Part shown: in pieces, positions 7,374-8,349 of the stretch | Position numbering within the stretch: the stretch's first letter is position 1 | Layout of the letters: each line of letters begins with the position of its first letter | From: a virus | Lineage: Duplodnaviria; Heunggongvirae; Uroviricota; Caudoviricetes | Direction: 5' to 3' (one strand) | IMG/VR virus record: IMGVR_UViG_2874945390_000012 | Length of the DNA stretch: 33,382 nucleotides | Program-made: the position numbers and the translations under genes | The notes under the pieces: generated by a model | Databases searched by the model: none | Seen by the model: only the letters and a program-made list of their open reading frames with translations | What the model was told of the DNA's origin: nothing

Positions 7374-8349
7374 GTGGCCACCGCCTTTGTTTTTTTCGTC
7401 TTCGCTTTCATTTCCGGCATGTCCAGTGATTCAGGCGGAACCAGCGCCAGAACCGTCATCCTCCCCTGTGCGCCATCCGTCCATGTCACCCCGGATATCA
7501 GCCAGGTGGTTTTCAGGTTCTGAATGCTGTCGTCGATATCGACAAGGCGGTTGGTCTGCCACAGCGGGCCGCTGTCGCCCTGTTCGCGCCAGCCTGCCAC
7601 CGTGATTTCCGTCGTGCGGGACTCTCCCAGCATCCGGGCTTTGTACCATTCCCCGCGAATGCTGGCCCCGCCCACCATCGGGGCAGGCTGGCTGTCCCAC
7701 AGTTTGCCACGGGCACTGGTGGTGCCCTTGATGATGTACTGGCTGTTACGCTCCCGCCAGCTGAAGCGCCCACGGGCGGCGAGGATATTTTTCCCAGCAC
7801 CAGTGACACGCCCGCGCGAACGGAAGAGGCGCGGGTGATAATCAGGTTACCCGTGCCGTCAGACGTCAGCAGAACGCCGCGCTGTTTTGCCAGCCGGTCG
7901 AGCAGTTCAAAGCCCGTTTCACCCTGTTCCAGAACGACAGACGCAAATGCCTCCCCGGTCGGGGTTTCCGTGATGACGGTTATCCCGAACGGGCGGCAGA
8001 CATCAGCCGCCACCTGTTCAAGCCGCACGCCTTTCCATTTCCCGGACGAATGCACCACAGAGCAGTCCACCAGGTCGCCGGTTTTATCGCGCCCCATGAC
8101 GCGAATCTCCACGTTTTCAGCCTCATAGCCGGGAATAAAATCATCGATATACCCCGTCAGCACGGTATCCGCGCCCAGCCTGACCGTGCAGGGTTGCCCC
8201 TCACGAATCACGCGCGGTGCCGCCGCTGACCAGCGGGTTGTCACACTGAGTTCAAACTCACCGGCAATCGCCTTCAGGGAACGGCTGACGGACATTTCCG
8301 TCCAGCCTTCCCACAGTTTGCCGTCAACGGTAAGAATCACGGATTCCAT
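7364..8349 (-). CDS. Baseplate hub protein (Mu gp44 / P2 gpD-like), interrupted by a frameshift at an A5 tract (~7786-7791)
   Basis: N-part frame (8349 down to ~7790) reads ...TSDGTGNLIITRASSVRAGVSLVLGK, then degenerates into Ser/Arg/Ala-rich sequence. The other frame from ~7792 to 7364 reads NILAARGRFSWRERNSQYIIKGTTSARGKLWDSQPAPMVGGASIRGEWY...WLISGVTWTDGAQGRMTVLAL, protein-like. Confidence 0.7.

Follow-up and report, generated by a model that had tools for sequence, protein, structure and literature searches.

A frameshifted baseplate hub gene, very probably a pseudogene, in a Mu-like prophage of Shigella boydii

Introduction

Why does the baseplate hub gene of a Mu-like prophage lie in two reading frames that meet at a run of five adenines? 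The question is raised by the IMG/VR virus record IMGVR_UViG_2874945390_000012, a stretch of 33,382 nucleotides (nt), called the window here, which is 100% identical to Shigella boydii CP026836.1 (GCA_002950135.1) over 18,349 bases. A sequence-only reading of the window had recognized a gp44/gpD-like hub gene broken at the A run and had left two causes side by side, a sequencing error and a true inactivating mutation. The comparisons presented here argue for the latter: the hub gene of this prophage is very probably a pseudogene within a decaying tail module.

The hub gene is read in two frames

An ATG at 8349 on the minus strand opens frame 1, which is protein-like up to Lys187 (...ITRASSVRAGVSLVLGK, ending ...RAGVSLVLGK); past this residue, the frame continues with 91 Ser/Ala/Pro/Arg-rich residues and a stop, giving an open reading frame (ORF) of 278 amino acids (aa) at 7513..8349. 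The in-frame part (codons 1-187, ending ...GVSLVLGK; 7789..8349, minus strand) carries the Pfam domains GpP-like_1st and Gp44-like_2nd and is matched by tblastn in one frame at 98.9% identity (query residues 1-187), and the out-of-frame tail with its stop occupies 7513..7788 (minus strand). Hub homology resumes after Lys187 in the -1 frame, which carries NILAARGRFSWRERNSQYIIKG..., reads NILAARGRF... from Asn188 (in longer context ...GKNILAARGRFSWRERNSQYIIKGTTS...) and extends through the stop at 7364-7366. This C-terminal part (7364..7789, minus strand) holds GpP_4th and encodes 141 aa, compared with 169 in the intact allele.

The switch between frames is located at CTGGGAAAAATATCC, where T5 on the plus strand (7788-7792) is A5 in coding direction and follows GGG (7793-7795). 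Both frames had been traced correctly by the sequence-only reading, the first as protein-like to GVSLVLGK and Ser/Arg/Ala-rich thereafter, the second as protein-like to the C-terminus; the switch had likewise been assigned to the A5 run, although the position given for the T run, 7786-7791, was one to two bases off. Altogether the pseudogene spans 7364..8349 (minus strand, 986 nt), compared with 1071 nt and 356 aa for the intact allele. Inserting a single A in silico does yield one ORF of 328 aa, the length that had been anticipated, but intact homologues have 356 aa and the insertion would not restore function, owing to the 84-bp deletion described below. Elsewhere in the gene, an A7 run (7390-7396, minus strand) lies in its Lys-rich 3' end, with the gp45 start codon (7373-7371) about 20 nt further downstream; this run exceeds the mutated one in length and is unchanged in all loci compared.

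The gene belongs to the Mu gp44/P family

The assignment to a gp44/gpD-like baseplate hub is supported by domain content and by end-to-end sequence homology to solved structures. All four Pfam domains are present in the intact allele above their gathering scores, and in the window they are divided between the frames: GpP-like_1st, Gp44-like_2nd and Phage_GPD match the 278-aa frame-0 product and GpP_4th matches the -1 frame piece. Residues 2-348 of the intact relative align with the 43-kDa tail protein of the Shewanella prophage MuSo2 (3CDD, E 1e-102), residues 3-341 align with phage Mu gp44 (1WRU/9KI1, E 3e-64), and the alignment crosses the break site uninterrupted (GVSLVLGKNILAARGRFSWRER vs GVSLILGDNVKAARGRFSWRQR). 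The location of the gene also fits the Mu tail module, after the tape measure gene and N (DNA circularisation) and before gp45, gp46, gp47 and gp48, as judged from the annotation of relatives and from tblastn. The locus thus resembles Mu gp44 (gene P) and its MuSo2 counterpart in having the four Pfam domains and in its place between N/gp43 and gp45-gp46-gp47-gp48; unlike them, the window copy leaves its frame past residue 187 and has a third domain 28 residues short. When the repaired window protein (328 aa) is aligned to these structures, a check that the sequence-only reading had proposed for Mu gp44, homology is evident (E 7e-90 to 3CDD and 7e-53 to 1WRU), but the match falls into two stretches and lacks the 28 residues.

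The connection to the wider hub superfamily is looser. The intact allele matches PF05954 (Phage_GPD) over residues 31-319 with 47 bits, against a cut-off of 30, a feature shared with P2 gpD and with the VgrG/Pvc8 hubs of contractile injection systems; the NCBI name of the 278-aa product (WP_241560013.1, Shigella boydii) is 'contractile injection system protein, VgrG/Pvc8 family'. This is a distant superfamily tie only, as the family in question is Mu gp44/P, with no spike or gp5-like extension. Members of the hub family are encoded by one uninterrupted ORF of about 350-380 aa, whereas in the window the frame shifts past codon 187 and 28 codons are deleted. Judged by its sequence, the window copy is a pseudogene of the Mu gp44/P family and not a working member.

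A single ORF is the normal state of the gene

A megablast search of complete E. coli genomes returned 47 records that cover the region, which is 142 bases longer there than in the window. The closest intact relative, E. coli FDAARGOS_943, is 99.6% identical over 3.3 kb and encodes the hub in one 1071-bp ORF (356 aa) annotated 'phage baseplate assembly protein', flanked by a 'DNA circularization protein' on one side and on the other by 'baseplate assembly protein V', 'GP46 family', 'baseplate J/gp47' and a YmfQ/gp48-like gene. Clustering at 90% places the intact protein among 618 members of 356-357 aa, which come from hundreds of contigs; in its exact form the protein recurs in 476 collection blocks, inserted at many different chromosomal sites. 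Among these sites, the intact Mu-like prophage (loci L023-L032) adjoins malF, the mhp operon, znuA, a lactate permease gene and others, and some genomes hold it twice (CP065611.1, CP065615.1). Such a spread of insertion sites and double copies is as expected of an active transposable phage family.

By comparison, 40 complete E. coli genomes have the 71-nt segment used for this check, and in no case does it match the A5 version exactly; the best matches reach 98.6%, with one difference over 71-72 aligned positions. At the DNA level, megablast of window positions 6400-9700 against the phage collection gave no matches; at the protein level, 113 phage records match the hub protein in a single stretch that covers at least 80% of it (the best being Klebsiella phage Kp4866-3, 70%), and 3CDD and 1WRU each consist of one chain whose alignment continues past the break. 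Functional two-ORF homologues, which the sequence-only reading had named, alongside independent reads confirming A5, as what would refute it, were not found in the 618-member cluster, the 113 phages or the E. coli genomes. A single ORF is the normal state, and split alleles are confined to degraded Shigella prophages.

Three lesions lie in gp44, gp45 and gp46

Aligned base by base to FDAARGOS_943, window positions 6400-9700 show 11 substitutions and exactly three gaps, in which the window lacks one A, 84 bp and 57 bp. The first is at the A run (7788..7792, minus strand), where one A of the ancestral A6 is gone: the intact relative has G3A6 and the window G3A5, the intact locus L001 reading CTGGGAAAAAATATC where the window reads CTGGGAAAAATATC. 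A 95%-identical relative has G4A5, which leaves the total length and the reading frame unchanged. Since the closest intact relative differs from the window exactly there, A6 vs A5, the position of the frame switch at the A run is not a matter of chance.

The other two lesions had escaped the sequence-only reading. At ~7675, 113 nt downstream of the A run, 84 bp are missing in frame. In the intact allele this segment begins with GTGGGCGG and is followed by a second GTGGGCGG; one copy of this 8-bp direct repeat is retained at the deletion junction in the window (7668..7675, minus strand). The lost segment encodes residues 226-253 (VGGRQYITEDPEINRYRPRILVNEDSLT), 28 conserved residues that align to a conserved stretch of 3CDD, and the repaired 328-aa protein accordingly skips 3CDD residues ~238-261 in the alignment. 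Therefore, one added A would not restore the hub.

The third lesion is a loss of 57 bp at ~6854, across the gp45 stop and the gp46 start. It is flanked in the intact allele by ACATCACCG repeats, of which one 9-bp copy is retained at the junction (6846..6854, minus strand). The gp45/V-like gene (6654..7373, minus strand) remains homologous down to 6846 and then, because its stop codon was deleted, runs into 61 junk codons, giving 239 aa vs 178. The gp46 remnant (6445..6852, minus strand) has lost its start codon and first 15 residues, and its first conventional in-frame start leaves 62 aa. All three lesions look like products of slipped-strand events, one at a homopolymer and two as deletions between short direct repeats.

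The A5 allele recurs in other Shigella assemblies

An exact look-up of the 278-aa product found it at two loci of CP026836.1 and in the Logan assemblies ERR200294, SRR4180506, SRR5024211 and ERR200293. All six loci have the A5 context together with both deletion junctions, and two of the four run assemblies differ from the window by 10-11 substitutions. The same 90% cluster contains a 251-aa 'bacteriophage Mu P family protein' from S. dysenteriae 155-74 and S. boydii (EGJ03696.1/WP_004996591.1), which shows the switch as ...LGKISSPP... and whose out-of-frame tail passes through the still-present 84-bp segment. This allele is listed in 104 collection blocks (95 contigs) from S. boydii and S. 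dysenteriae; among the loci fetched, 10 of 10 are G3A5, with gp45 (178 aa) and gp46 (150 aa) intact.

The carriers of the A5 allele are tail-only remnants, truncated by the insertion sequence (IS) IS66 and with IS4-type elements inside; in several of them, moreover, the baseplate J gene is truncated or the sheath gene is split. These cryptic remnants of S. boydii and S. dysenteriae share with the window the G3A5 frameshift, the gene order and 99.3-99.9% DNA identity, and with the second copy in the genome of the window they also share their surroundings, IS66 and an IcmF gene. Unlike the window, they have kept the 84-bp segment and intact copies of gp45 and gp46; the deletions of 84 bp and 57 bp arose in the window lineage, where the damaged segment is also found in a near-complete prophage. 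Because the 251-aa allele has A5 without the two deletions, A5 is the older lesion, and the deletions came later, as expected if they accumulated in an already dead gene. One 251-aa locus (L015, AKNA01000011.1) has an extra indel downstream of A5, its -1 frame having 180 codons vs 169; this is independent, continuing decay of the dead half of the hub. On Mu-like prophages of S. boydii, the literature searched yielded only the SfMu paper (PMC4406740), which refers in passing to 'a cryptic Mu-like prophage in S. boydii'.

Alternative explanations for the split gene

One alternative is that of a functional, recoded two-ORF gene, in which ribosomes would slip by -1 on G_GGA_AAA (Gly-Lys) and go on with AAT (Asn), reading LGKNIL... 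and still making the hub. We regard this as very improbable. The heptamer, formed by the loss of the A (7795-7789 in coding direction; 7789..7795, minus strand), lies in frame 0 and has the X_XXY_YYZ slippery pattern of -1 sites; a slip there would give the wild-type junction LGK-NIL (junction peptide ...SLVLGKNILAAR). Few hub subunits are needed, only three per virion, gp44 being a trimer, and a G+C-rich hairpin starts ~7 nt past the heptamer. When the 88 nt downstream were folded, however, the structure was no better than those of shuffled sequences (z = -1.3, with 23 of 200 shuffles as good), and a 100-nt fold gave z = -0.75. The heptamer G_GG.A_AA.A is used by some IS elements (PMC4066793), but, according to Sharma et al. 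(2014; PMC4066793), earlier work had shown it to be inefficient in E. coli, and in the absence of a stimulator slippery motifs barely rise above background, reaching at most a few tenths of a percent (PMC4066793). A parallel exists with the tail sites of the lambda G/GT type, where the slippery sequence G_GGA_AAG is near-identical to the frame-0 heptamer at the window break. Whereas the two frames of lambda-type sites are conserved across phages and lie in a tail assembly chaperone gene, the window has a lineage-specific lesion of a hub gene with no conserved stimulator. A programmed site also requires a conserved two-frame layout, but single ORFs are what the 618-member cluster, all 40 E. coli genomes, the 113 phages and the Protein Data Bank chains show; with one ORF in all phages and intact prophages, the split layout is derived. 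Furthermore, the A5 carriers are all IS-disrupted remnants, L015 with its further indel among them, and the -1 product of the window would still be 28 conserved residues short, in a module in which gp45 and gp46 are damaged too. The heptamer is accordingly treated as incidental, as nothing supports programmed frameshifting there. In the ~100 Shigella assemblies with A5 only, there is a slim chance that adventitious slippage supplies a few hub trimers and makes the allele leaky and not null; in the window itself slippage would bring no rescue because of the 84-bp and 57-bp deletions.

Several points weigh against the reading of the locus as a decaying pseudogene and are best taken together. The perfect frame-0 heptamer could allow some -1 slippage. 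The support for A5 comes from assembled contigs, those of the Logan runs included. Short-read assemblies collapse both prophage copies into one contig, so that the presence of A5 in each copy rests on one finished assembly. Finally, frameshifts in three other genes of the window (tail fibre, 203-aa and gp16-family genes, see below) come from one assembly, and the picture of decay could be partly assembly error.

That the A5 run is itself an error, the genome really having A6 and the long-read assembly having under-called the homopolymer, is nonetheless highly improbable. Homopolymer deletions are typical of long reads, and several further single-base losses in C or T runs of the window are seen only in this assembly. 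A noisy, unrelated E. coli assembly (L020, GCA_027274555.1) is even frameshifted at this A run, and almost all the genes around it are in fragments; its 189-aa product (P0003), considered as an independent frameshift that would mark a mutational hotspot, was rejected as sequencing noise, the tail genes of that contig being nearly all fragmented. Against an error stand the recurrence of the same A5 at two loci of a finished genome, in four independent runs and in ~100 further Shigella contigs from many projects, and its company of 84-bp and 57-bp deletions, which are not of the sequencing-error types. Judged across these assemblies, the A5 run is a true, vertically inherited allele and no sequencing error; of the two causes originally left side by side, the true mutation stands, the same allele being present in independent assemblies, and the error falls.

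Equally improbable, lastly, is a phase-variable switch in which changes of the A run between A5 and A6 would silence and restore tail production: the break does lie in a G3A5-6 purine tract of which both lengths occur in nature, but 16 of 16 A5 loci examined are exactly G3A5 and the intact loci are all G3A6 or G4A5, the state of the tract follows lineage with no variation within a lineage, its five or six bases are fewer than in typical contingency tracts, which are longer, and secondary downstream deletions are not expected of a gene that is periodically switched on.

Probable inactivation of the hub and its proposed spread between two prophage copies

With the pseudogene reading retained, the course of events may be reconstructed as follows. 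One A was lost from the G3A6 tract, most likely by replication slippage, so that translation exits the hub frame past Lys187 and stops 91 unrelated residues later. The product retains domains 1 and 2 only; without the sequence for domains 3 and 4 of the hub, and therefore, by homology with Mu gp44 and its relatives, there should be no trimeric hub and hence no assembly of a contractile tail. After this first hit the region drifted: the C-terminal half, now unread, suffered the 84-bp deletion between the GTGGGCGG repeats, and the 57-bp deletion between the ACATCACCG repeats took out the stop of gp45 along with the start of gp46. By gene conversion, the damaged baseplate segment of 5.9 kb was probably copied between two resident prophages.

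Evidence for this last step comes from the second copy in the same genome (L005, CP026836.1 4456303-4477139), an IS66-truncated remnant beside an IcmF-family gene, the same setting in which the 251-aa allele is found in other strains. The window and L005 are identical from 4456 to 10340 (~5.9 kb, zero substitutions) save for one 1-base gap, with all three lesions inside this tract. Around it the two copies diverge by 2-10%, with 26 differences per 244 aligned bases at 3000-3499, 54 per 500 at 10000-10499 and 22 per 1000 at 12000-12999. Short-read contigs end at 10340 or 10378, at the boundary where the copies diverge or at most 40 bases from it. Because the damaged segment is identical in two otherwise diverged copies, gene conversion or recombination between the two prophages is proposed, which fits the data and probably moved all three lesions together. 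As for the direction, positions 10059-10340 are of the remnant type (~99%) and less like FDAARGOS_943 (91.5%), a hint that the remnant may have been the donor of the tract; comparison of seven related prophages in 500-bp bins shows a family too mosaic for the direction to be firm.

Adjacent to the tract, positions 10341-11184 (minus strand), in the centre of a 618-aa tape-measure-like gene, give no alignment or 10-15% divergence with every related prophage compared. Because its flanks are near-identical, the centre of the tape-measure gene is a recombination hot zone; the lengths of the protein across copies are 580, 597, 614 and 618 aa.

The rest of the prophage

The 47 proteins of the FDAARGOS_943 prophage were mapped onto the window by tblastn. 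Transposase A and B, Gam, Mor, lysin, terminase, portal, protease, major head, sheath, tube, N, gp47 and gp48 are each in one frame, collinear and mostly 97-100% identical; in the baseplate region gp44, gp45 and gp46 are broken. Three further genes are each spread over three frames. The 468-aa tail fibre gene ('prophage tail fiber N-terminal domain'; 1776-3171, minus strand) has lost one CCAG unit of a CCAGCCAG repeat at ~2127 and one C of a C run at ~2827. A 203-aa tail-region gene (13973-14579, minus strand), between the virion morphogenesis gene and DUF2635, has single-base losses in two C5 runs (14206 and 14290) and is intact in L005 and relatives; its break could be an assembly error. The gp16-family gene beside mor (25888-26434, minus strand) has single-base losses at ~26005 and ~26063 in comparison with a 183-aa relative. 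The 222-aa tail-fibre fragment (2123-2791) and the 110-aa fragment (14247-14579) of the 203-aa gene, looked for in independent assemblies, were found only in CP026836.1.

The intact reference is not itself free of breaks: opposite window position 27181 (L003 30283-30466), FDAARGOS_943 has T8 and a pseudogene annotated 'frameshifted', and the window has T7. The prophage ends at ~114, and positions 1-113 of the window are host flank with dsbG-like fragments, followed in the longer locus L004 by ahpC/ahpF.

Implications for prophage annotation and Shigella genome decay

The window thus holds an ordinary pseudogene; public databases already contain its gene family, its type of lesion and even its truncated product. 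As fragments of pseudogenes, the 278-aa and 239-aa ORFs ought not to be annotated as proteins, and the prophage is to be scored as tail-defective although its transposition, head and packaging genes are apparently intact. The locus also provides a worked example of how a real homopolymer frameshift can be told from an error without reads, via the look-up of the exact product across independent assemblies. Shigella is well known for the accumulation of pseudogenes. The identical dead segment in two diverged copies, probably the outcome of conversion, indicates that during the decay of Shigella genomes gene conversion can spread inactivating lesions between resident prophages.
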